From Mobula hypostoma (Eukaryota): a DNA stretch of 64,000 nt. The DNA lies in the NCBI RefSeq assembly GCF_963921235.1, contig NC_086108.1, forward strand, positions 61,258,001 to 61,322,000, read 5' to 3'. A program made the position numbers and the translations under genes. The notes beneath the pieces were generated by a model. It made no database searches. It was not told where the DNA came from and saw only the letters and a program-made list of their open reading frames with translations. Within the stretch, counting starts at the first letter, position 1. Every line of letters starts with the position of its first letter. Shown one piece after another: positions 10,905 through 63,835 of this stretch.

Positions 10905-11044
10905 CTTCAGTTTCATCATTGAATCTTGACAGAGCTTATCTCCCCTTGCAGCAGAAACCTCATCCACACCAATTAGCTTTGCCCTATACCGGAATCCATC
11001 TCCTTTAAAACGTTTTATCAGACCAGCTTCACTCCGATCCTGAC
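10905..11044 (-). CDS. DAB1: Internal coding exon of Disabled homolog 1 (start of PTB/PID domain)
   Basis: Acceptor ctttttctttgaacttgcag|GT and donor AAG|gtaatc; 140 nt, entering in phase 1 and ending in phase 0. Translates (G)[46 protein letters not shown], matching recalled human DAB1 residues 23-69 at 42/47 and clearly closer to DAB1 than DAB2. Missed by the ORF track. Confidence 0.93.
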
Positions 11045-11978: not shown

Positions 11979-12184
11979 CACACACAAAATGCTGGAGGAA
12001 CTGAGCAGGTCAGGCAGCATCTATGGAGGGAAATAAACAGTTGATGTTTTGGGCCTGATCAGGAGTCCTGATGAAGGGCCTTAGTCTGAAATGTCAACTG
12101 TTTACTTCCCTCCGTAGATGCTGATTTCCTCCAGCATCTTGTGCGTCCTGCTCAAGATTTCAGCACTTGCATTCTTTCTTGTGT
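11979..12184. mobile_element. Penelope-derived fold-back (inverted repeat) mini-element
   Basis: Arms 11981-12050 and 12088-12145 are imperfect reverse complements and match the Penelope terminal sequence at 24166-24300 and 33430-33530. Degenerate CTGATGA...GAAA at 12068-12091. Confidence 0.8.
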
Positions 12185-20334: not shown

Positions 20335-21962
20335 AATTCGAAAATGACAGGGGGAAGAAGTGAGTGTGGTTTCTAATACTAAGGAAAAGGTGTTTGGGAA
20401 GTTGAAAGGTCTGAAGGTAAATAAGTCACCTGGGCCAGATAGACGACACCACAGAATTCTGAAAGAAATAAATGAAGAGATTGTCAAGGAATAAGAAATG
20501 ATCTTTCAAGTATCACTAGATTCTGGAGTGGTTCTTGAGGACTGGGAAATTGCAAGTATCACTCCACTATATAAGAAGAGAGGGAGGCAAAAGAAAGGCA
20601 ATTGCAGGCCAGTTAGGCTGACTTCTATGGAGTTCATTATTAAGGATGAGAATTTGGGGTACTTGGAGGCGCATGATAAAATTGGCCAAAGTCAGCATGG
20701 ACTCCTTAAAGGAAAATCTTGCCTGACAAATCTATTGGAATTCTTTGAGGAAATATCAGACAGGATAGACAAAGGAGAGTCAGTGGATGGTGTTTACTTC
20801 GACTTTCAGAAGGTCCTTGACAAGGTGCTGCTCATGAAGCTGCTTAATAAGTAAGAGATCATGGTATAAAAAGAAAGATACTATCATGGATAGAAGATTA
20901 GCTGACTGGCAGGAAGCAAAGAGTGGGAATAAATGTGGCTGTTTTGGTTGGTGGCTAGTGATTAGTGGTGTTCTGCAGGGATCAGTGTTGGGACTGCTTC
21001 TTTTCACATTATATGTCAATGTTTGGATGAAGAAATTGATGGCTTTGTCGCCAAGTTTGCAGATGATACAAAGATAGATGGAAGGTCAGGTAGTGTTGAG
21101 GAAGCAGGGTGTTTGCAGAAGGACTTAGACAGAATAAGAGAATGGGCAAAGAAGTAGAAGATGGTTATAGTGTAGGGAAGTGTAGAAGGTAGAAGAAATT
21201 AAGGCACAGACTATTTTTTAAATGGGGAGAATTTTTTTTTAAATCAGAGGTGCAAAAGGACTTCAAAGTCCTCATACAGGATTACCTAAAGGTTTACTTG
21301 CAGGTTGAGTCAGTTGTAAGGAAGGCAAATGCAATGTTTGCATTCATTTTGAGAGGACTAGAATATAAGACTATGAATATTATGCTGAGGCTTATAAGGC
21401 ATTGGTCAGACTTGCAGTATTGTGAACAGTTCTGGGCTCTTTATCTAAGAGAAGATGTACAAGCACTGCAGAGGGTCCCGAGGAGGTTCACAAAAATGAT
21501 TCTAAGAATGAAAGGGTTAACATATGACGAGTGTTTCATGGCCCTGGGCCTGTACTCACTGGACTGTAGAAGAATGAGAGAGAATTTCATTGAAACCTAT
21601 TGAATATTGAAAGGCCTAGATAGAGCGGATGTGGGGAGGATGTTTCCTATAGTGAGTGAGTCTAGGACCAGAGAGCACACCTTTAGAATAGAAGGATGTC
21701 CATTTAGAACAGAGATGAGGAGGAGTTTCTTAGCCAGAGGGTGTGAATCTGTAGAATTCATTTCCATGGATAGCTGTGGAGGCCAATTCACTGGGTATAT
21801 TTAAAGCGGAGGTTGATAGGTTGTTGATTATTCAGGGCGTCAAAGGTTATGGGGAGAAGGCAGGAGGATGGGACGGAGAGGGATAATGTATCAGCCATGT
21901 TGGAATGGTGGGGCAGTTGCAAGGGGCCAACTAGACTAATTCTGCTCTTATGTCATATGGAC
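20335..21962 (+). mobile_element. CR1 LINE, 5'-truncated, degenerate RT
   Basis: Peptides EDWEIASITPLYKK, SQHGLLKGKSCLTNLLEFFEE, GVLQGSVLG, KFADDTK; CR1 3' UTR; multiple stops and frameshifts. Confidence 0.92.
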
Positions 21963-24900
21963 TTAAGGAAATTTAAAAGGTACAATAGCCAACCATCTGA
22001 TTGGATAGAAATGACAGGTGCATTATTGAGTCTTTCAGAGAGTGCTAATGTAGTAGATTGTCAGTTATGGGCAGGCATGCTCCTGGAAGTTTCATCAGGT
22101 TATGTAATGTTGTTCACAACTAAGTTACTCAAAAACAAATTCACTCTGGGACAATGTAAAATGCATCCATTGGAAAGCCTTCCATGTTCATTTCGGCTTG
22201 GAAGGATTTTGAATATGGCTTCAAAAAGGCGCATTTGCTTCCAGTTCCCAGATGACTTGATTGTGCAACATTTGTAACCTTTCGAAAAAGGCACAGAATT
22301 GCGCCTTTACACATCACAGATTTGATTTTATCCTTGATAAATTAAAGAACATTTATAGAGAATCTGCCCTACTCACTTTCCCACAATATATTCAGTACCT
22401 TACCCTCATCCATATTAAAATCCATATGCCATTGTTCCACCCCTTTATACATTTCATCTAATTCTCTTTGTCATTCCCTCAGGTTCAACTGCACTTTCTG
22501 GTTTGGTAAAATATGGAAATATGGCAACATTTTGTTGTATTTCATATCCATGCCGTAAATGTAAATTAGAAACAGTTGGGGTCCAAATGCCAATCCTCAT
22601 ATGTGACTCAATCTCCGAATAATTAAGTTTTTATTTGGTCCAGAAGTAGAAGATATTACATTCTGAAAGATAAGGAGAGACTGTTGTCTTGGGCACTAGT
22701 CAGACCTCATGTCCGTCAGTAGTACATGCTCAGATTTGATCCTAGCCCAAAGGTAGAAGATAAAGGTCTGGTCTTAATCCCTGTAATGCTGGATGCTCTC
22801 AATAGTTATAAAAATCTTAGATTTTTTTTTCATATAGGTTTAACAATTGTATATATCTTAATAGCTAATTGTGCAACTTAAAATGATTAAAAATTTGTAG
22901 TCACGCGGTATTTGCAAGCTCATCAAATAGTTAGAATTAGGTAAAATTGTTTAGTGCAATTTCAAAGTATTTTAACAGGACCAGATAAATTATTTTCAAA
23001 TCCACAATGGAGAATTGCCCCTGGCTGGATTATTGAATTCCATCTGTGATCACTTTTGCAAAACCACATTTAAACATTCTCTGTATTAAGAGAATCAATT
23101 GGTTAGAAAATAAAGTTCAAAAATTCTTCCATTTATTAAACTGTGCATGCTATTTATATAGTTCTAAAAGTCAGGTATGAATTGTTGTAAGAATACCTAA
23201 TAAAACTAATCAGTGATAACAATGATAGGCATTTTGGTTACTATTTGTTGGGATCTGCTTTCAAATCTATTTGTGCTATCTCTTTTCTGATTGCATTGGA
23301 GGAGTACTTTATTGCTGTCTCTCTCACTTCAGTGACTACTAAACACTCCCAGCTATGGCTGAGTAATACAAACGTGATTCCTTGGGTGAATGATCACAAT
23401 TAGAACGAACAATGAAAGAGTGCCAGTTCAACTGTGATACTGAATTTGCTTAGATGGGTAATTAAATAAGGCTCTGGTTTTGTTTGGGGAACCAAGTATT
23501 CTGTGCTGGGAATAATGAATTTATTTATTAGAAGATGGCCAATCTAGGCTGGAGTCTGAGCCAGCAGGGTATGTACAATAAAATTCTCAGGCTTACTTAT
23601 TTATACTTTTTAATTGCTTCAAGCTGATAAACAACACTAAAGCAAAATAAGATGAAATAGCAGTTGTCTGTAGTATTTTGGGCTTATAAAATTCAAACAG
23701 AAGAATGTAGTTTCAGGATGAGGTCAAGCTGGGTAACATGAATCCTCATCAATTTGAACTAAGCCAATTCACATACATTTGCCTAAATCAAGTTCACTTT
23801 CATGCCCCTTGTGTTAAATTAGCACAAACCACTAATTACAGGAGCTACACTTACTCTTTCCGAAAAAGGAAGTGCAGGGCTTTTGAGAAAGAAATTAGAG
23901 CAAAAACATTCTTAATGGGAGAGAGGGATATTGCCTCTTTGTATTTGTTACAATAAAATGGGGCAATAATGTGTTTCAATATGATCTGAATTACCACATT
24001 ATACACAGGATTTCAGCAAAATATTGTTCAAACCCAGGTAGTCCCTTGGGATCAGGAATTATTTCCAGACCTTCGGGGATGTCTGATATGGCAAATGTGT
24101 TCCATTTGTTTTCATTAGAATGGAAACTGGGAAGTGTTAGGGTTATCATGCTTGTATGAATCATAAACACAAGTAAGTCTGAAGATGCTGGAAATCCAAT
24201 GTAACATACACAAAATGCTGGAGAAACCCAGCAGGCCAGTTAGCATCCATGGAAATGAATTAGCTTTCAATGTTCCAGCCGAGACCTTTCATCAGGACTG
24301 GAAAGGAAAGGGGAAGACAACAGAATAAAAAGGTGGTGGGATGGGAAGGAGGATAGCTAGAAGGTGATATGTGAAGCCAAGTGGGTAGGGAAGGTCAAGG
24401 GCTGGAGAAGAAGGAATCTGATAGGAGTGGAGAGTGGACCATAGGAGAAAGGGAAGGGGGAGGGGACCCGGGGGAGGTGAAAGGCTGGTGAGAAGATACA
24501 AGAGGCCAGAGTGGGGAATAGAAGAAGAGAGTAGGGGTGGGGAATTTTTTTTTCACTGGAATGAGAAATTGATATTCATGCCATCAGGTTGAAGACAATC
24601 CAGACAGAATATAAGGTATTGTAACTACTCCCTGAGAGTGGCCTCATCTTGGCACAAGAGGAGGCCGTGGACTGACATGTCAGAATGGGAATTGGAATTA
24701 AAATGTTTGGCCACTGCTTTTGTTCTGCTTTTGACAGATGGAGCAGAGGGTGAGGACCGGTTCTGCCAGACAGAGGAGGGTTGTGGTGGAGGGAACTGTC
24801 TGGTTCTGTTATTGAGATAGAAGAATAGAGCTTTAACACCTTCTTTATGGGGGATAGAAGTGTATAGGGACTAGACATCTATGGTGAACATGAGGTGGTC

Positions 24901-25422: not shown

Positions 25423-25473
25423 GCAAGTCTCGACCACACAAAGGTGGACCCAGCAGAGTGAGAGCAGCTGACC

Positions 25474-26010
25474 TTGGCCATGAGATTCATTGGTCAGGTA
25501 GGAGACAAGCTACAGGCAATGGAATCTGTTCTCAGTGAAGTTACGGAGGCAATGACGCAGATAACCTCATGCCGACAAACCCAGTCTCACTTGAAGGAAC
25601 AGGTATCGTCCCTAGCCGTAACTGTTCAACAGCTCACCACAGACAATTGGACTCAGGTGCCTGCGATTTCCACACTCACGACCGTTGCCCACGAACTTGC
25701 TGAGAACAGCCAGCATCAGCTGACAGCCATTAACGTTCTCGCCAGCTCAATTCAGCATCTCACAGGTCCTCCTTTTCTGCTGCCCCGACAATCTCTGCTA
25801 CTAATGCTCCCGCTCCCCCGCCTGGACCAGAGCGATTCCCACAACCATACAGGAACCGAGTATTCCACCACCAGGCAGATATTCTGGTGATCCCGATGGT
25901 TGCAGGAATTTTATTACCCAATGCGAGCTGACATTCCAAGTCCAGCCTGATCATTTTGGTGATGATGCGCGAAAATTGGCGTACATGGTCAATCTTCTTG
26001 ACGGATCTCC
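25474..26010 (+). pseudogene. Gypsy gag N-terminal remnant
   Basis: Coiled-coil-like ORF followed in another frame by EPSIPPPGRYSGDPDGCRNFITQCELTFQVQPDHFGDDARKLAYMVNLLDGS. Confidence 0.8.
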
Positions 26011-27958
26011 ACTCACCAAGAAGATATCAGAAGGATTCCATCGGATGGATGATGCCAACCAAGCATTTTCAGAGCTAAAGTGATGTTTCACCACTACCCA
26101 CTGCTGCAGCACCCAGGCCCATCTCAGCCATTCATTGTTGAGGTAGATGCATCCGATGTAGGCATTGGAGCTGTCCTCTCTCAGCGCTCGTCTGTGGATA
26201 GATGGCTGCACCCCTGTGCCCTTCTTTCCTGTCGCTTCTCTCCAGCCGAGAGGAATTACGATGTTGGGAACCGGGAGCTTCTGGCTGTCAAGGAGACCCT
26301 GGAGGAATGGTGACACTGGCTGGACGGGGCAGAGCATCCATTCTTGGTCTGGACAGATCACAAAAACCTCTCCTATATTCAGGATGCTAAGAGACTCAAC
26401 TCTCGTCAAGCCCGGTGGGCTCTCTTCACATGATACAATTTCATCGTCGCTTATCGGCCCGGCAGCAAGAATACAAAGGTTGGTGTTCTCTCCCGGCAGT
26501 TCAACGGATCTGAGGACAATGCCAATCCAGAGCCCATTCTTCCTCACTCGTGTATCGCTGCTCTGGTGATCTGCAGAATAGAGGAAGAGGTGAGGGCTGC
26601 CCAAAAATCGGATCCAGGCCCGGATGGGGAACCTCCCAATCAGCTGTTTGTCCCTGCTGTGGTGTGTTCCAAAGTGTTGGAGTCACTCCTCCTGTCCGGC
26701 TGGACATTTGGAAATTCAATGGACTCAAGAGTTTATAAAGAGACAATTTTGGTGGCCATCTATGTCCTAGGATGTCCACGACTTTGTATCTGCCTGTCCC
26801 ACCTGCACTTGGAACAAGACATCATGCCAGCGTCCTGCAGATCTGTTATGTCAACTGCCAGTGCCCCCCCGACCCCTGGTCCCACCTCTCAGTAGACATC
26901 ATCACAGGTCTGCCCCTGTCTAATGGAAACACCACCAGTTTGGTCATTGTAGATTGATTTTTCAAGGCTGCCCACTTCATTGCCCTCCCCAAGCTCCCAT
27001 TGGCTCATGAGACTGCCACACTCATGGTTCAACAAGTGTTCGGGCTCCATGGGTTTCCCCAAGACATAATGTCTGATCGTGGACCACAGTTCACTTCCCG
27101 CTTTTGGAAGGCTTTCTGCTCACTTGTAGGAGCCACAACCAGCCTTTTGTCTGGCTTCCACTCCCAATCTAATGGCCAGCCTGAGAGAGTGAACCAGGAA
27201 TTGGAGACAACCCTGCACTGCCTTGCCTCTTCCAACCCCACGTCCTGGAGCTCCCAAATGGTTTGGGCAGAGGTTGTCCACAATAACCTCCAGTCATCCT
27301 CCACAAGTATGTCTCCCTTTGAATGCCAGAAGGGATTCCAGCCCCCGCTCTTCCCTGATCAGGAGATCGACATAGGAGTTCCTGCGGCAGAGCAGCTGAT
27401 CCAGCGCTACAAGCGCACCTGGAGACGAGCCAGGGCTTCTCTGCTGCACACCCAGACACAGCATTCCCGGCAGGCTGATCAGCTCCATCAACAGGTAAGG
27501 CCATTCAAGCCAGGAGAGGAGGTCTGGTTGGCATCAAGGGATCTTCCCCTGAAAGTCTAGAACTGGAAATTGGCACCTCACTATGTGGGATCGTTTGTAG
27601 TGGAAAAGGCCGTCAACAAGGTGTCCTATAGATTGCATCTACCAGTATCACTGAAGATCCACTCAGTATTCCATGTTTCCCAGCTCAAGCCAGTTACTAC
27701 CTCTCCCCCGGCCCCAGTCACCCCACCTCCCCCTCCTCCCCACCTGGTAGATGGTTCCCTTGTCTATACTGTGCAGTGCCTCCAGGCGTCTCGCCGGGTA
27801 CGTGGTAAGGTCCAGTACCTTATGGTCTGGGAAGGGTTTGGCCCAGAAGAACGTACTTGGATCCCAGCGAAGTACATCTTGGACAAGTCGCTGATCCGGG
27901 ACTTCCAGCGGGCACAGGTCTGTGGCGCCTCAGAGGCTGCGCCTAGAGAGGGGGCCCT
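26011..27958 (+). pseudogene. Gypsy pol remnant: RT connection/RNase H, integrase, chromodomain
   Basis: [110 protein letters not shown]; in-frame stops. Confidence 0.92.
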
Positions 27959-31300: not shown

Positions 31301-32447
31301 CTGGGAAAGAGAGATTTATTGTACATCATTTCAAACTGTGTAATGTCAAGGCTTCTGGTAGAAAAGGGCGAAGAATTTTGTGCTCAAAGAAATGTCTGAA
31401 TTTTCCTTAAATGCTACAAGTAAAATGATAAGAAAAGATGCAGGGTTATAAATAGTACAACAGAATGATAAACAAGTGCAAGGTCTATTAATCAAATAGC
31501 CACCCCCTTAGACCGAATCACATAACAGGCCAATATTTAGAAAATCCCAAACAAAAGAGTCCTATAATCAGACAGTGGTTCCTTTTGTTGGATTCATTCT
31601 ATTCACTGCTATGTTTTGGTGCAAAGCTTCAATGCACAAACAGAACAAAGATGAAAGGAGTCACTGATAATAGGAATTGATGAGTCTCTCACTCTGTTGG
31701 TAGAATTGTGTTATTATAATAAATAAGTATATTAATTTTACAATAGGAAAGCCTAATGAAACCAGGCTTTAATAAATTGCTATCATTAACCCTTTGAATT
31801 CTAATCATTAGGTTTAAAATCTATAATCAACATTCACATACTAATCCCACAAATCCTTTTGGATTATTTAATTCAATTACTAGTATAATAAGCAGTTCAT
31901 TTTTCATTCTTGTGTATGATTGATAATTCCAAGGTAGTTTAGAAAGAATGCAGCTCTATGAATATTAAATACTTCAGCCTAACATGCTTTGAAAGTAAAA
32001 CTAACTCCTTTGTACATCCATTAATAGAATTGCACTACTCCTGTTGAGTCATTCTTCTGGTTTTGTTCAAGAGCCTACTTGCACAGCAAAAGTTATCATA
32101 CTTGCGCTCATTTGCACAAAGATATCATGAAATGCTACATAAGTTGACCTTGTGTTTATTTGTTCTTTATTGGTTATATCTGAACTACTCATCTGATCGC
32201 CCTTTTAAAACTGAGTCTGAGTCCCATGTGTTCAAGTGCTACTTATGAAGCAAGTGCAAAACCTAAATTAAAATTTTAGTGAGAGATATGATGCCGCAGG
32301 CGGAGTCTGTTAGATGACTTGTTAAAGAAGTTCTTCCCTCTTCTCTTATTATGACCTCTTTGGTGATTAGTGATAAGTTTATTTTTCCCAGATCATTTAT
32401 TTGACTCCATGGACAAATAGATCATCCTCATCATTAAACAAATAGTA

Positions 32448-32624
32448 ACACACACAAAAAATGCTGGTGAACGCAGCAGGCCAGACAGCATCTATAGGAA
32501 GTGGTACAGTCGACGTTTCAGGCCGAGACCCTTCGTCAGGACTCCAGTCTGGTCTGCTGCGTTCACTAGCATTTTTTGTGTCTGTTGCTTGAATTTCCAC
32601 CATCTGCAGATTTCCTCGTGTATG
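32448..32624. mobile_element. Penelope-derived fold-back mini-element with 16-bp TSD
   Basis: TSD cattaaacaaatagta at 32432-32447 and 32625-32640; inverted arms ~32454-32486 and ~32548-32580. Confidence 0.88.
32508..32543 (-). ncRNA. Minimal type I hammerhead ribozyme motif
   Basis: Minus strand reads AGTC-CTGACGA-AGG gtctcgg CCT-GAAA-C-GTC-GACT: stem I AGTC/GACT, both conserved core boxes, 3-bp stem II, palindromic ACGT stem III and a GUC cleavage triplet. Confidence 0.75.
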
Positions 32625-33427
32625 CATTAAACAAATAGTACCATTTACCTCAATAAATATCTCTTGCATCACAGAGCACATGCTGAATTTGAGAGGTCAA
32701 ATCAATGACCTCTACTCTGGCTTCTGCTGATACCATGCATTGAGCTGCCGTCAATAATCCATCAGTCTTCTCATTTTTATAAACGTTACTATAATGATTA
32801 AAAGCTTGATTTTTGGTACTTCTACAAAATACACAGCAAGAAAGAAAAAGGTTAAGGGTGTTTTCCACGAGCGAATATTCAAAACAATGACAAAATCATG
32901 GTAAGATTCAGCCTTTTCAGCACTAATAAAGCACCAAAAATAGATACTAGGCATTTTCCAAATGAATTCTCTATTACAAACTCATACACCAAAGGCAAAG
33001 CAAATTCATCACTGCATTATCTTGCAAATGTCAATACTACAACTCCTCATTACACTCATGGCTCTTTCCTGATTCATTCTTTTCATCAAAACATTCTACA
33101 CTACACCATCTTGGATGATGCTGTAGATTCAGAAGAGATGCTGTGCACTCTCTTTTTTACGTAAAATTGTTTCCTATATAAAGATTCATAATGTTTTAAA
33201 TACAGTTGAAGTATAACCACTGACTTCAAGAAAGTTATCACTATTTCTTTGTTCATTTGCTTTCCTGCTATACTTCATTCCTTTATTCACATGGATGTAT
33301 ATCTGCAGATTTTTAAGGAAACGTTTCCCCTGAGACAATTTGTTTTATACTGAGGTAGAACAGTTGAAAGTTGCTCCCGTTCACATTGTCATCAAAGTTT
33401 TTTTTGCAACGGAAGTAAGAATCCATT

Positions 33428-34400
33428 GCAACCCACACAAAATGCTGGAGGAACTCAGCAGGCCAGGCGACATCTGTGAAAATGAACAGATAGTTGATGT
33501 TTCGGGCTGAAACCCTTCTTCAGGACTGAGACGGAAGGAGGAAGGTGTCAGAATAGAGATGTGCAAGCGGGGGCAGGAGAGAGGCTAACCAGAAGGTGGT
33601 AGGTGAAACCAGGTGGGTGGGAAAGGTCAAAGGTAGGAGAAAGAATCAGATAGGAGAGGAAACTGGACAATAGGAGGAAGGGACCCAGGAAGTAATAGGC
33701 AGGTGAGAAGAAGTAAAAGGTAAGAGTGGGGAATAGAAGAATGAAGGGTGGGGGGAATTTGTTTACCGGAAGGAGAAATTGATATTCATGCCATCAGGTT
33801 GGAGGGTACCCAGATGGACGATAAAATGTTGCTCCTCCACCCTCATCTTGGCACAAGAGAAGGCCGTGGACTGACATGTCGGAATGGGAATGGTAACAGG
33901 AATTAAAATGTTTGGCCACCAGGACGTTCTGCTAGTGGCGGATGGTGCAGAGGTGCTCAACAAAGCGGTCCCCCAATTTACAATGGGTCTCACCAATGTA
34001 GAGGAAACCACATCAGCAGCACCAGATACAACAGATAACCTCAACAGATTCACAGGTGAAGCGTTGCCTCACCTGGAAGGACTGTCTGGGGCCCTGAATG
34101 GAGGTGTAGCACACAGGCCGCTTGTAAGGATAAATACCTGGAAGGAGATTAGTGGGGAGGGATGAATGGGCAAGAGAATTGCAGAGGGAGTGATCCCTGC
34201 GGATAACCTAGGTAAGCATATGTTTAGTGGTAGGATCCCTTTGGAGATGGAAGAAATTACAGAGGCAGTGGGAAGACGGGGTGAGTGTGGATGAATGGGA
34301 AATGGAGGAGATGTGAGTGGGGCAGCATCAATAGCAGGAGGGAAACCCTGTTCTTTAAAGAAGGAGGGTCCATTGCCTTTGCTGAAGTCCATCCCACATA
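33428..34400 (-). mobile_element. Penelope-like element 3' part (GIY-YIG endonuclease and terminal repeat)
   Basis: Minus strand FTCESVEVICCIWCC*CGFLYIGETHCKLGDRFVEHL ... EEQHFIVHLGTLQPDGMNINFS; hammerhead-like motif at 33492-33527. Confidence 0.88.
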
Positions 34401-51861: not shown

Positions 51862-54810
51862 AGTGCATAGAAGCAGGATGATTTGGCAGGTTTATGCATG
51901 GCTGAGAAGCTGGTGCAGCAGGCAAAACTTCAGGTTCTTGGATTATTGGGATCTTTTCTGGGGGAGGTATGACCTGTTCAAAAGAAACGGGTCGCACCTG
52001 AACCTGGGGGGAACTAATATTCTTGCGGGCAGGTTTTTTAGAGCTGTTTGGGAGGGTTTAATCTAATTTGGCAGGGGGATGAGGACCAGAGTGAAGGGAC
52101 TCAGGATAGGACAGATGGTTAAAGCAAAGATAGCATGCAGTCAGACTGTCAGGAAGGGCAGGCAGATGATAGGACATAACTGCAGCCAGCAGGGTGAGTA
52201 CCAATGCATTTGAGATTAAGAAACTGTGAGGGTAAAAGGACCCTGATGACAGTTATATACAGGCCTCAAACAGTAATTGAGATGTGGACTGCAGTTTACA
52301 ACAGGAAATAGAAAAAGTGTGTCAGAAGAGCAATGTTACGATATTCATGTGAGATTTCAACAAACAGGTCGATTGGGAAAATCAGGTTAGAAATGAATCT
52401 CAAGAGAGTGAGTTTGTTGAGTGCCTATGAGATGACTTTTTAGAGTAGTTTGTCATTGAGCCTACTAGGGAACAGCTATACTGGATTGTGTGTTATGTAA
52501 TGAATCAAAGGTGACTAGGGAGCTTAAAGTAAAAGAACCCTTAGGAGGCAGTGATCACAATATGATTGAGTTCAACTTGAAATTTGATAGGGAGAAAGTA
52601 AAGTCTGACATAGTAGTATTTCAGTGGAGTAAAGGAAATTACAGTGGTATGAGAGAGGAGTTGGCCAAAGTACACTGGAAGAGATGCTGGTAGGGATGAC
52701 AGCAGACCAGCAATGATGTGAGTTTCTGGGAAAAAATGAGGAAGGTGCAGGGTAGATGTATTCCAAAAGTGAAGAAATATCAAAATGCCAAAAATAGTAC
52801 AACTACGGCTAACAAGAGAAGTCAAAGCTAACGTAACAGCAAAAGAGAGGCTACACAACAACACAAAAATTCATGGGAAGACAGAGGATTGAGAAGCTTT
52901 TAAAACCCTACAGAGAGCAACTAAAAGAATCATTAGGAGGGAAAAGATGAAATATGAAAGCAAGCTAGCAAACAATATTAAAGTGTAGAAAAAGCTTTTT
53001 CAAGTATATAAAAATTAAAAGAGAGATAAGAGTAGATAAAGGACCTCTAGAAAACAAGGCTGGAGGAATAATAACAGGGGACAATGTGATGGCAGATGAA
53101 CTAAATGACTACTTTGCATCAGTCTTCACTGTGGAAGATATTAGCAAAGTGTCAGATGTTGAAGGGTGTGAGGGAAGAGAAGTGGGTGCAGTTACTATTA
53201 CAAGGGAGAAGGTGCTCAAAAAGCTGAAAGACCTTAGGGTACGTAAGTCACCCAGACCAGAAGGAACTGCACCCTAGGATTTGAAAGAGGTAGTGGTATG
53301 GATTGTGGAGGCATCAGTAATGATCTTACAAAAATCATTGGACTCTGGCATGGTGCCAGAGGACTGGAAAATTGCAAATGTCACTCTACTCTTTAAGAAA
53401 GGAGGAAGGCAGCAAAAAGGAAATTATAGACCAGTTAGCCTGACCTTAGTGATCCCTTGGGAAGATGTTGGAATTAATTGTTAAGGATGAGGTTACGGAG
53501 TACTTGGTGTCACAGGACAAGATAGGACAAAGTCAGCATGGTTTTCTTAAGAGGAAGTCTTGCTTGACAAAGCTGGTGGAGTTCATGAAGGAGATTACAA
53601 GTAGGATAGATAAAGGGGATGCAGTGGATGTTGTACATTTGGACTTCCAGAAACCTTTGAAAAGGTGCCACATATGAGGCTGCTTACCAAGTTAAGAGCC
53701 CATGGTATTACAGAAATGTTACTGGCATGGTTAGAACATCGGCTGATTAGTAGGAGGCAGTGAGTGGGAATAATGGGATCCTTTCCTCGTTGGCTGCCAG
53801 TGACTAGTGGTGTTCCACAGGGGTCGGTATTGGGACAACTATTTTCTATGCTGAATATCAGTGACTTAGATGATGGAATAGATGGCTTTGCTGCCAAGTT
53901 TGCAGACGATACGAAGTTTGGTGGAGGGGCATGGAATGTTGAGGAAACAGGTAGGCTGCAGCGTGACTTAGATACATTAGGAGAATGGGCAAGAAAGTGA
54001 CAAATGAAATACAATGTTGGAAAATGTATGGTCCTGCACGCACTATGGCAGTAGAAATAAATATGCAGACTATTTTATAAATGGGGAGAAAATCCAAAAA
54101 TATGAGATGCAAAGGGACTTGGGAGTCCTTGTGCAGAACACCCTAAAAGTTAACTGGCAGGTAGAGATGGTAGTGAGGAAGGCAAATGCAATGTTAGTAT
54201 TCATTTCAAGAGGTCTAGAATCCAAGAGCAGGGATGTGATGCTGAGGCTTTATAAGGCACTGGTGAGGCCTCACCTTGAGTATTGTGAATAGCTTTGGGC
54301 TCCTCATCTAAGAAAAGATGTGCTGGCATTGGAGAGGATTCAGAGGAAGTTCACAAAGATGATTCCGGGAATGAAAGGGTTATCATACAAGGAACTTTTG
54401 ATAGCTTGGGTTCTGGGATCGCTGAAACTTAGACTGTTGAGGGGGGAACCCATTGAAACCTTGCAAATGTTGAAACGTCTGGACAGAGTGGATGTGGAAA
54501 GAATTTTTCCTGTGGTTGGGGATTTTAGGATAAGAGGGCCCATCCTCAGGATAGAGGGGTGTCCAATTAAAACAAATATGTGGAGAAATTTCTTTTGTCA
54601 GAAGGAGGTGTATTTGTGAAATTCATTACTACAGTCAGCTGTGGATGCCAGGTCATTGGGTGTATTTAAGGCAGAGCTTGATAAGTTCTTGATTGGACCT
54701 GGCAATAAAGGTTACAGGGAGAAGGCTGGGTAATGGGGCTGAGGAGGCAAATAAAGGATCAGCCCTGATTAAATGGCCTAATTCTGCCCCTATGTCTTAT
54801 GCTCTTATGG
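51862..54810 (+). mobile_element. CR1 LINE (ORF1 esterase C-terminus, partly deleted APE, RT, 3' UTR)
   Basis: WLRSWCSRQNFRFLDYWDLFWGRYDLFKRNGSHLN, EPLGGSDHNMIEF, GVPQGSVLG..KFADDTK, PHLEYCE; disrupted. Confidence 0.93.
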
Positions 54811-60925: not shown

Positions 60926-61561
60926 TAACATAAAAGGATTCATGTGCAACATCAAACTCATGTCGAGAGACAATTGAAAAAATACAGGCCTATACAACAG
61001 TGTGAGTAGAGGTAGCATCAGGAGTGGGATAATGAATTTTACACAGATACTGATGATACTCCTAAATATTGGTTAGGAGATAGCACTTGCAACTGAATGA
61101 CAAAAAAGATCCCTCCCTCCCAATTCCCTTTCTGGCAAACAACCAATATTTTGCTGCAGGCTTCCAGTACCTGTTCTGAGTGTACATCAGTTCTTTGTGG
61201 CAAGGGAGATTCACTCCTTTCTTTCCCCTATTACAGATAAACTGGCTGAGATTGATGAGACTTTTCCTCAGGGGAAAACACAGGATCAAAGATAATGATT
61301 GCGAAGCTTGCTTCTTTCTAGAGAGAACAGCTTTTTCTTATATTGTAACCAGTTTGTGTTCACCTAAATACAGTGGGAATCAAATGTAATCTAACATGAG
61401 TCAGGATTTGTAACCTACACAAAATCTCAGTTGTGTGAACCCATTCTCAAGAACACGAACAAAGGCCAGAATCAGATTAACTAAAACTTAAAGGCCAAAA
61501 AAAAGTAAGAGCTTTTATTACAAGCTGAACATAAAAGACAAAAGTGATACAAATTCCCAAT

Positions 61562-63835
61562 CAAGTGATCATAATATGATTGAATTCAGTTTCAAATTTG
61601 AAAAGGAGAAGCTGGTATCAAATGTATCGATATTTCAGTGGAACAGGGGAAATTACAGTGGTATGAGAGAGGAACTGGCCCAAGTCGATTGGAAAAGTAA
61701 GCTAAATGGACGAACGGCAGAGCAGAATTGGATGAAATTCCTACAAGAAATAAGGAAAATGCAGGAAAAATATATTCCAAGAAAAAAGAAAATCATGAAT
61801 GGAAAAATGGCACAAATGTGGCTAACGAGAGAGGTTAAGGCAAAAATAAAAGCAAAAGAAACGGCGTACAAGGAAGCAAAAATTAATGGGAAAAATGAGG
61901 ACTGGAAGACTTTTAAAAACTTACAGAAAGAAACTAAGAAAGTCATTAGGAAAGAAAAGATGAATTATGAAAGGAAGTTGGCGATTAACATAAAAAAGGA
62001 TACTAAGAGTTTTTTTAAATATATGAGAGTGAGAGAGTGACAAGGGTAGATACGGGACCGATTGAAAATGATGCTGGAGAAATTATAATTATTAACAAAG
62101 AGATGGCGGAGGTTCTGAATGAGTATTTTGCATCAGTCTTCACAGTGGAAGACATGAGCAATATACCTGATAGCCAGAGGTATCAGGGAATAGAATTAGG
62201 TACAGTCAAGATTACTAGAGAGAAAGTGCTTGGGAAGCTAAGTGGACTAAGAATAGATAAGTCTCCCGGTCCGGATGAGGTTCACCCAAGGGTTCTGAAG
62301 GAGGTGGCTTTGGAGATTGTGGAAGCATTGGAAATGATCTTCCAGGAATCAATAGACTTTGGCATGGTTCCGGAGGACTGGAAGGTCGCAAATGTAGTTC
62401 CGCTATTTAAGAAAGGAAGGAGGCAGCAAAAAGAAAATTACAGACCTATTAGTCTGACATCGGTAGTTGGAAAGATATTGGAGTCAATCCTCAAGGACGA
62501 GGTTATGAAATACTTCGAGGTGCATGACAAGATAGGCCGAAGCCAGCATGGTTTCATGAAGGGAAGATCCTGCCTCATCAACCTATTGGAATTTTTTGAG
62601 GTAACCTCGAATAAGATTGACGAGGGAGAGGCTGTGGATGTTCTGTATTTGGATTTTCAAAAGGCCTTCGATAAGGTGCCGCATATGAGGCTGCTTAATA
62701 AGATAAGAGCCCATGGAATTATAGGAAAGATTTTGAAATGGGTGGAGCATTGGCTGATAGGCAGAAAGCAAAGGGTAGGAATAAAGGGATCCTATTCTGA
62801 TTGGTTGCCAGTTACTAGTGGTATTCCGCAGGTGTCGGTGTTGGGGCCGCTTCTTTTTGCAATGTATATCGATGATTTGGATTATGGATTAAATGGTTTT
62901 GTGGCTAAGTTTGCGGATGACACCAAGATAGGTGGAAGAGCAGGAAACGTTGAAGAAATGGAAAGGTTGCAGAGAGACTTAGTCAGTTTGGGAGAGTGGG
63001 CAACGAAATGGCAGATGAGATACAACGTTAACAAATGTACGGTTGTACATTTTGGAAGAAGAAATAATCAGGCAGATTATTATTTAGATGGGGAGAAAAT
63101 TCAAAAATCGGAAGTGCAAAGGGACTTGGGGGTCCTCGTGCAGGATACCCTAAAGGTTAACCACCAAGTTGGATCGGTGGTAAGGAAAGCTAATGCTATG
63201 TTGGCATTCATTTCAAGAGGAATAGTGTATAAGAGTAAGGAGGTGTTGACGAGGCTGTATGGGGCATTAGTGAGACGTCATTTGGAATACTGTGTGCAGT
63301 TTTGGGCGCCCTATCTTAGAAAGGATGTACTGATATTGGAGAGAGTTCAGAGAAGATTTACGAGGATGACTCCTGGAATGCAGGGGCTAACATATGAGGA
63401 GCGTTTGTCGGCTCTTGGATTGTATTCATTAGAGTATAGAAGAATGAGAGGGGATCTCATAGAAACATTTCGAATGTTGAAAGGGTTGGACAGAGTAGAT
63501 GTGGAAAGGTTGTTTCCCTTGGTGGGTGAGTCCAGGACAAGAGGCCATAGTCTTAGAATTAGAGGGTTAAAACAGAGATGAGGAGAAATTTTTTTAGCCA
63601 GGGGGTTGTGGATTTGTGGAATTCGTTGCCACATACAGCTGTGGAGGCCCGATCATTGAGGGTGTTTAAGGAGGAGATTGACAGGTATCTAATTAGTCAG
63701 GGTATCAAGGGATATGGGGAAAAAGCCGAAAATTGGAACTAGATGGGTGAATAGTTTAGCTCATGGGGGAGCTGCGGAGCAGACTCGATGGGCTGAATGG
63801 CCTACTTCTGCTCCTTTGTTTTGTGATCTTGTGAA
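61562..63835 (+). mobile_element. Relatively young 5'-truncated CR1 with a long open RT frame
   Basis: ORFs 61576-62040 and 62037-63581 (514 aa; GIPQVSVLGP, YIDDLD, KFADDTK) joined by one frameshift; starts at SDHNMIEF, the end of the APE domain; intact 3' UTR. Confidence 0.96.

Follow-up and report, generated by a model that had tools for sequence, protein, structure and literature searches.

Endonuclease-bearing Penelope-like elements of the Neptune or Nematis type encode a reverse transcriptase (RT) followed by a GIY-YIG endonuclease and hold a hammerhead ribozyme in their pseudo-LTR. Their insertions have a recognizable form that combines an inverted copy joined head to head, a tail of 30-40 bp on one end and a short target duplication. 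Two earlier studies describe the inverted, 5'-truncated copy and the tail of this length at one end as typical of Penelope-like elements (PMC8557442; PMC3846280). The hammerheads of metazoan Penelope-like elements are minimal type I motifs with CUGANGA and GAAA boxes, an extra base between positions 9 and 10.1, a short stem I, a consensus G10.1-C11.1 pair and a palindromic 15.2-16.2 (Cervera and de la Pena 2014, PMC4209133). They occur mostly as single dispersed copies, with some close pairs on opposite strands. Single minimal motifs gave no cleavage and dimers gave little (PMC4209133; PMC6765202). Purified protein of the Penelope-like element Poseidon from the green anole cuts and extends both target strands, and it begins reverse transcription at two sites, one at each boundary of the tail (Frangieh et al. 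2024, PMC11167929). In the anole, ribozyme cleavage required the protein, and RNA-seq showed no ends at the site. Animal non-LTR retrozymes, which PMC7229834 and bioRxiv 10.64898/2026.07.22.740005 define as tandem repeats, are Penelope-related and non-coding, with head-to-tail units of 150-450 bp, canonical type I hammerheads and circular RNA.

We analyzed a hammerhead-bearing insert in a 64,000-nt stretch of the Mobula hypostoma genome (the window; contig NC_086108.1). With a probability of roughly 0.88, its 177 bp are two 5'-truncated 3' ends of a Penelope-like element joined head to head, likely in one insertion, and carry the standard hammerhead of their family, which is predicted not to cut the surrounding intron RNA alone. 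The insert shares its inverted copy, single tail and short duplication with Neptune/Nematis-type insertions, and its boxes, extra base, short stem I and palindrome with the minimal hammerheads, as well as the occurrence of its family mostly in single dispersed copies with some close opposite-strand pairs. It resembles Poseidon in the two apparent start sites bounding the tail and in the probable cutting and extension of both target strands. With retrozymes it has in common a non-coding sequence, a type I hammerhead and a Penelope relationship, but it holds a single minimal hammerhead in an inverted pair.

Structure, age and parent family of the insert

The insert and its surroundings are composed of the following parts.

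32432..32447, plus strand: left copy of the target-site duplication, 16 bp; the empty site has a single copy and skips 193 bases
32448..32543, minus strand: tail-less arm, 96 nt of Penelope-like pseudo-LTR that begin with hammerhead stem I and stop at the inner 3' end, which lacks the tail
32508..32543, minus strand: minimal type I hammerhead, predicted cut 32512/32511
32543-32540 with 32511-32508, minus strand: hammerhead stem I, followed by CUGACGA at 32539-32533 and a bulged A at 32532
32531-32528 with 32523-32520, minus strand: hammerhead stem II, followed by GAAA at 32519-32516 and then the palindromic ACGU and GUC
32544..32546: three bases at the head-to-head joint, assigned to neither arm and particular to the DAB1-intron insertion
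32547..32585, plus strand: second arm, the 39 terminal nt of the pseudo-LTR, which adjoin the tail; opposite in orientation to the first arm and mismatched to it at 3 positions
32586..32624, plus strand: Penelope "tail", 39 nt, on the second arm only
32625..32640, plus strand: right copy of the target-site duplication, 16 bp, exact repeat of the left copy
10905..11044, minus strand: DAB1 second coding exon, 140 nt; the insert sits in the 85.7-kb intron that precedes this exon

The minus strand at 32543-32508 reads AGTC CTGACGA A GGGT CTCG GCCT GAAA CGTC GACT. All parts of a minimal type I hammerhead are present, comprising the core boxes, stems I and II, the NUH triplet and a palindromic stem III. 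The initial annotation had identified both boxes, a 4-bp stem I, the GUC triplet, the ACGU palindrome and the cut at 32512/32511, all of which can be read here. Its 3-bp stem II (AGG/CCU) has to be redrawn; the folding model gives that helix a pair probability of 0.02 and favors GGGU/GCCU after the bulged A (0.87-0.97). The G10.1-C11.1 closing pair of stem II is absent from the locus, with G-U in the favored register and A-U in the other. An Rfam scan of 31500-33500 returned no hammerhead match up to E 10 and two unrelated weak matches.

The 177 bp lie between the duplicates at 32432-32447 and 32625-32640, which are exact over 16 bp, as the initial annotation had stated. It had also placed the ribozyme within an inverted repeat of about 33 bp; the repeat exists but is longer, covering 43 nt at 91% (32444-32486 with 32547-32589); within the insert it amounts to 39 nt with 3 mismatches. 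Both arms are under 100 nt, so no coding sequence is left, unlike in typical Neptune/Nematis-type insertions.

We compared the site in contigs from eight sequencing runs. In six of them (X10, X11, X12, X14, X16 and X19, from organisms C, D, E, F, H and I), contigs join 32431 to 32625 and contain the 16-mer once. The seventh, from organism B, has contigs that reach into the insert from the left and from the right and differ by about 1.7% in the flanks. The eighth, X9, has the same species label and was uninformative. Because six related organisms hold the empty site, the insert represents one insertion event, in agreement with the original suggestion that it arrived as a unit. Its absence from these six and its presence in B date it to after the split from the six but before the split from B.

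The hammerhead belongs to a large family. A 35-nt core pattern matched the genome 43,010 times, a 25-nt pattern following the cut site 106,772 times and a 26-nt pattern spanning the ribozyme's 5' half 13,040 times; the reversed control of each gave 0 matches, so the core is not a chance occurrence. In longer copies the core lies at the 3' end, preceded by as much as 1.8 kb of element sequence. Broken frames in this upstream part contain DKG and YIDD motifs, a C-X4-C-X2-C linker (seen in the translations of L061 and L063) and a GIY-YIG-like domain. The parent ORF matched Pfam RVT_1 at E 2.7e-6 and 4.8e-5, both under Pfam's cut-off, and the Pfam search gave no GIY-YIG endonuclease match. Its Atlas matches were to RT/HTH_animal (0.97) and GIY-YIG (0.96). 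The sequence of the tail-less arm also terminates the RT/GIY-YIG-coding copies L061-L064, which bears out the proposed Penelope origin of the minimal type I hammerhead with its palindromic stem III. These results show that the parent is an abundant endonuclease-bearing Penelope-like element, with RT and then GIY-YIG upstream of a hammerhead-bearing pseudo-LTR. The C-X4-C-X2-C linker fits the CX2-5CxxC motif that precedes GIY-YIG in the Neptune clade; it suggests the Neptune or Nematis type, as PMC8557442 credits an added linker motif to both, and places this family and Poseidon in different clades. Copy number, above 100,000, is a difference from Neptune/Nematis-type elements, and duplications in the family measure 9-17 bp versus 8-10 bp in Adineta examples.

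Most of the 225 cores that we collected represent one young haplotype, and about three quarters of the 100 cores listed are identical to the letter. By hand count, these 100 contain CCTG 79 times, CCCG 16 times, CCCA 3 times and CCTA 2 times. We rejected CpG decay as the source of U11.1 on this distribution, which instead makes U11.1 a subfamily variant. G-C at 10.1-11.1 occurs in 16 of the 100. The commonest variant thus closes a 4-bp stem II with G-U, unlike the PMC4209133 consensus, and this dominant young subfamily with U in place of the conserved pair has nevertheless reached tens of thousands of copies. Our literature search, mainly of open-access main text, found no description of the family; the PMC4209133 hammerhead tables or the species table of the 2026 preprint may list it.

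Formation of head-to-head insertions

We examined 42 head-to-head pairs among loci L001-L106, of which L002-L030 were chosen by their likeness to the query. We dropped eight pairs because their duplication was weak, an end was eroded or the structure was compound; the 34 kept have duplications of 9-17 bp. We also took a positional sample, the first 100 exact cores of contig C1, which covers the first 6 Mb of that contig and counts twice those cores present on both arms. In this sample, 45 cores lie in head-to-head inversions, 2 follow a direct copy and 53 are apparently solo within 1.5-2.5 kb. The tail follows 49 cores (about 38 nt) and is missing from 51. In 44 of the 45 inversions exactly one arm carries it, the tail-less partner being a shorter fragment in a few cases. 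Arms can be as short as tens of nucleotides or exceed 1,000 nt. Of the 100 cores, 24 belong to fold-backs in which neither arm reaches 140 nt; scaled to 43,010 cores, this gives a rough estimate of ten thousand short fold-backs genome-wide.

Primer-template microhomology at the two outer ends averaged 1.29 and 1.38 nt in the 34 pairs, versus 0.71 and 0.69 nt at random sites, and 2 and 0 of 2000 null draws reached the observed means. This slight excess at both ends differs from Poseidon, for which the start was reported not to be homologous to the cut DNA. We infer that the insert was made by priming on both target strands (twin priming). The element endonuclease would have made a staggered cut about 16 bp apart, as the duplication suggests. 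One strand, primed at the outer start site, would have copied the tail and 39 nt, 78 nt in total, and the other, primed at the inner start site, would have copied 96 nt through the hammerhead. End-to-end joining of these two short cDNAs with three extra bases would then have given the insert a junction of its own.

A different route to the same neutral insert from the same element begins with one priming at the tail, after which the cDNA copies itself into a palindrome (snap-back) and one arm later loses its centre. Self-priming of this kind is proposed for Penelope head-to-head repeats in PMC3846280. At least five sampled inversions (L077, L101, L112, L144 and L153) have near-perfect palindromic joints, which fit snap-back synthesis better than twin priming, and the arms of our insert differ at only 3 of 39 places. 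However, its tail-less arm extends 57 nt further 5' than the tailed arm, so that an extra one-sided deletion would be needed, and either arm may be the longer in other copies. The microhomology excess at both outer ends is also expected from two primed ends. We consider snap-back a possible but less probable origin of this insert and favor twin priming.

The initial annotation had instead described a retrozyme-like derivative moving as a unit, and it proposed a search for fold-back copies with other target duplications. Such look-alikes with their own duplications do exist. A DNA search gave 2,857 candidates, and all 40 that were scored span most of the 177 bp. These copies share their outer ends but not their inner joints. 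Inner junctions are distinct in 40 of the 42 pairs, and none of the other 41 pairs has the junction of the DAB1-intron insert. The wide range of arm lengths also argues against a unit, and the sequence itself is the 3' end of RT/GIY-YIG-coding copies. A few junctions recur. Three inversions with different flanks (L165, L166 and L167) have one identical junction, which reflects either recurrent joining or limited re-mobilisation of a fold-back, and 16 of the 92 classified loci that start at the predicted cut site share a join with stem I microhomology. Unlike the tandem-repeat retrozymes of PMC7229834 and the 2026 preprint, the locus has no tandem array and one hammerhead, in an inverted arrangement; 2 of the 100 sampled cores have a direct upstream partner, and the copies have no fixed structure. 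It is therefore very unlikely that the 177 bp are a non-autonomous fold-back unit propagated by transcription and re-insertion.

The insert is a real but ordinary product of Penelope-like insertion. The locus has little importance of its own, as some ten thousand short fold-backs are estimated for the genome and six related organisms lack this one. More can be learned from the family, whose more than 100,000 young copies with sharp ends form a large natural data set on Penelope transposition. These copies could address twin priming versus snap-back, primer microhomology and minimal hammerhead cleavage in vivo.

Ribozyme folding and the DAB1 transcript

We located the DAB1 exon by a motif scan and a PDB match. 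The exon at 11044-10905 on the minus strand matches solved DAB1 (Disabled homolog 1) at E 1.7e-17 and DAB2 at E 2.8e-11; the DAB1 locus is not among the 21 matches of a PF00640 genome search. The DAB1 start-codon exon, in matching phase, is located 32.8 kb outside the window, past its final position, and the next exon lies on the other side. The exon match and this phase place the insert on the transcribed strand of the 85.7-kb intron and uphold the sense orientation that had been assigned to it.

The window also holds remains of other mobile elements. Older, decayed copies of related pseudo-LTRs are present in the window at 33431-33527, at 24167-24299 (minus strand) and at about 11979-12101, and the copy near 12 kb also resembles a head-to-head pair. 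Much of the intron is taken up by fragments that by eye resemble LINE reverse transcriptases, of the CR1 type and others (for example 124-336, 20495-21600, 52969-53997 and 61492-62037). Broken frames at about 25460-26900 on the plus strand look, by eye, like gag, RNase H and integrase of an LTR retrotransposon.

We modeled the ribozyme with a folding model that omits Mg2+, tertiary contacts, proteins and co-transcriptional order. The 177-nt RNA folds far better than its shuffles (z -8.1) because of the inverted repeat, and the 51-nt ribozyme region alone does not (z 0.2). Stem I has a probability of 0.91-0.98 when the ribozyme is folded alone; its own arm lowers this to 0.65-0.70, and the complete fold-back to 0.005, also in a 371-nt context. 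The latter model contains a small host-derived hairpin just outside the insert (32668-32718 region), which is not element sequence. The outer hairpin had been proposed to clamp stem I; in the model it displaces stem I instead, from 0.65-0.98 down to 0.005. Because the two molecules of a double hammerhead build stem I between them, an intramolecular clamp would oppose the active form.

A second molecule is needed in any case, since stem III, an ACGU palindrome with C15.2-G16.2 and no loop, cannot close within one. In the modeled monomer, a GACG/CGUC helix hides the core. The constrained active dimer lies above the best cofold by 27 kcal/mol for the 177-mer and by 19 kcal/mol for the single arm. 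We scanned the intron for the ribozyme pattern and found 11 sense-strand and 4 antisense matches, with an intact core only in the insert itself. The earlier suggestion that the intron RNA could be cut here therefore finds no support, as no intact sense partner exists among the 11 sense-strand matches in the intron and lone minimal motifs were inactive when tested (PMC4209133). We predict that the insert copy does not cut DAB1 intron RNA on its own. Its inverted arms would form a long hairpin in that RNA and misfold the ribozyme, and with stem III lacking a partner the insert would be a neutral passenger.

These results also bear on whether the insert acts on its host, with DAB1 intron RNA being cut, as a hairpin-held monomer or as a dimer with another family transcript, and DAB1 processing being affected. 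The core boxes are intact and sense to DAB1, and they form the only intact sense core in that intron. Partners in trans may exist in so abundant a family, and a related ribozyme cleaved after its protein was added (PMC11167929). However, an intact core is expected of any young copy where most cores are letter-identical, and the site is empty in six related organisms. Together with the open stem III, the hidden core and the energetic cost of the dimer, this makes an effect on DAB1 highly improbable.

Copies that start at or near the hammerhead

If cleaved RNA served as a template, the 5' ends of copies should pile up at the scissile bond. We counted starts with patterns that require three non-element bases before a given start. 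This gave 177 starts two bases after the cut, 199 one base after, 536 at the cut, 85 one base before and 89 two bases before, so exact cut-site starts are 2.7-6 times commoner than those at neighboring bases. They amount to about 0.5% of copies as counted. We classified 92 of the 536 loci at the cut, as well as 40 of the 177, 30 of the 199 and 30 of the 85. The excess is mostly in inversion joins, where it is 3.9-fold (2.7-5.7) without microhomology, versus 0.9-2.1 in simulation. For joins straight to host DNA it is 2.1-fold (1.04-4.0).

A non-catalytic G-start 20 nt downstream has 294 starts versus 113 at its neighbor, about 2-fold after allowing for one fewer constrained place. For this reason we do not count the cut-site peak as proof of cleavage. 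The cut-site starts may be cDNAs that ran off a self-cleaved template, a fossil record of germ-line ribozyme cutting in the family's 100,000 copies, but we regard this explanation as doubtful. In vivo cleavage by the family is thus only hinted at. If true, this would be the first genomic sign of a minimal Penelope hammerhead cleaving in vivo during retrotransposition, of which RNA-seq in the anole showed none. Our search of mainly open-access main text found no report of junction pile-ups at a hammerhead cut site.

The 5' truncation points of the family also cluster just upstream of stem I. Among the 100 sampled cores, 24 end at most 10 nt from stem I (L077-L160), and the DAB1-intron copy likewise ends just upstream of it (window 32543-32546). 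Upstream of stem I, the parent element has a pyrimidine tract and CAG that resemble a 3' splice site, and in Drosophila Penelope an intron end has been reported at helix I (PMC4209133). Inspection of the short copies by eye revealed no common short first exon joined by splicing to the AG that precedes stem I. Candidate causes of the cluster are an RNA 5' end, a splice site or an RT stall.
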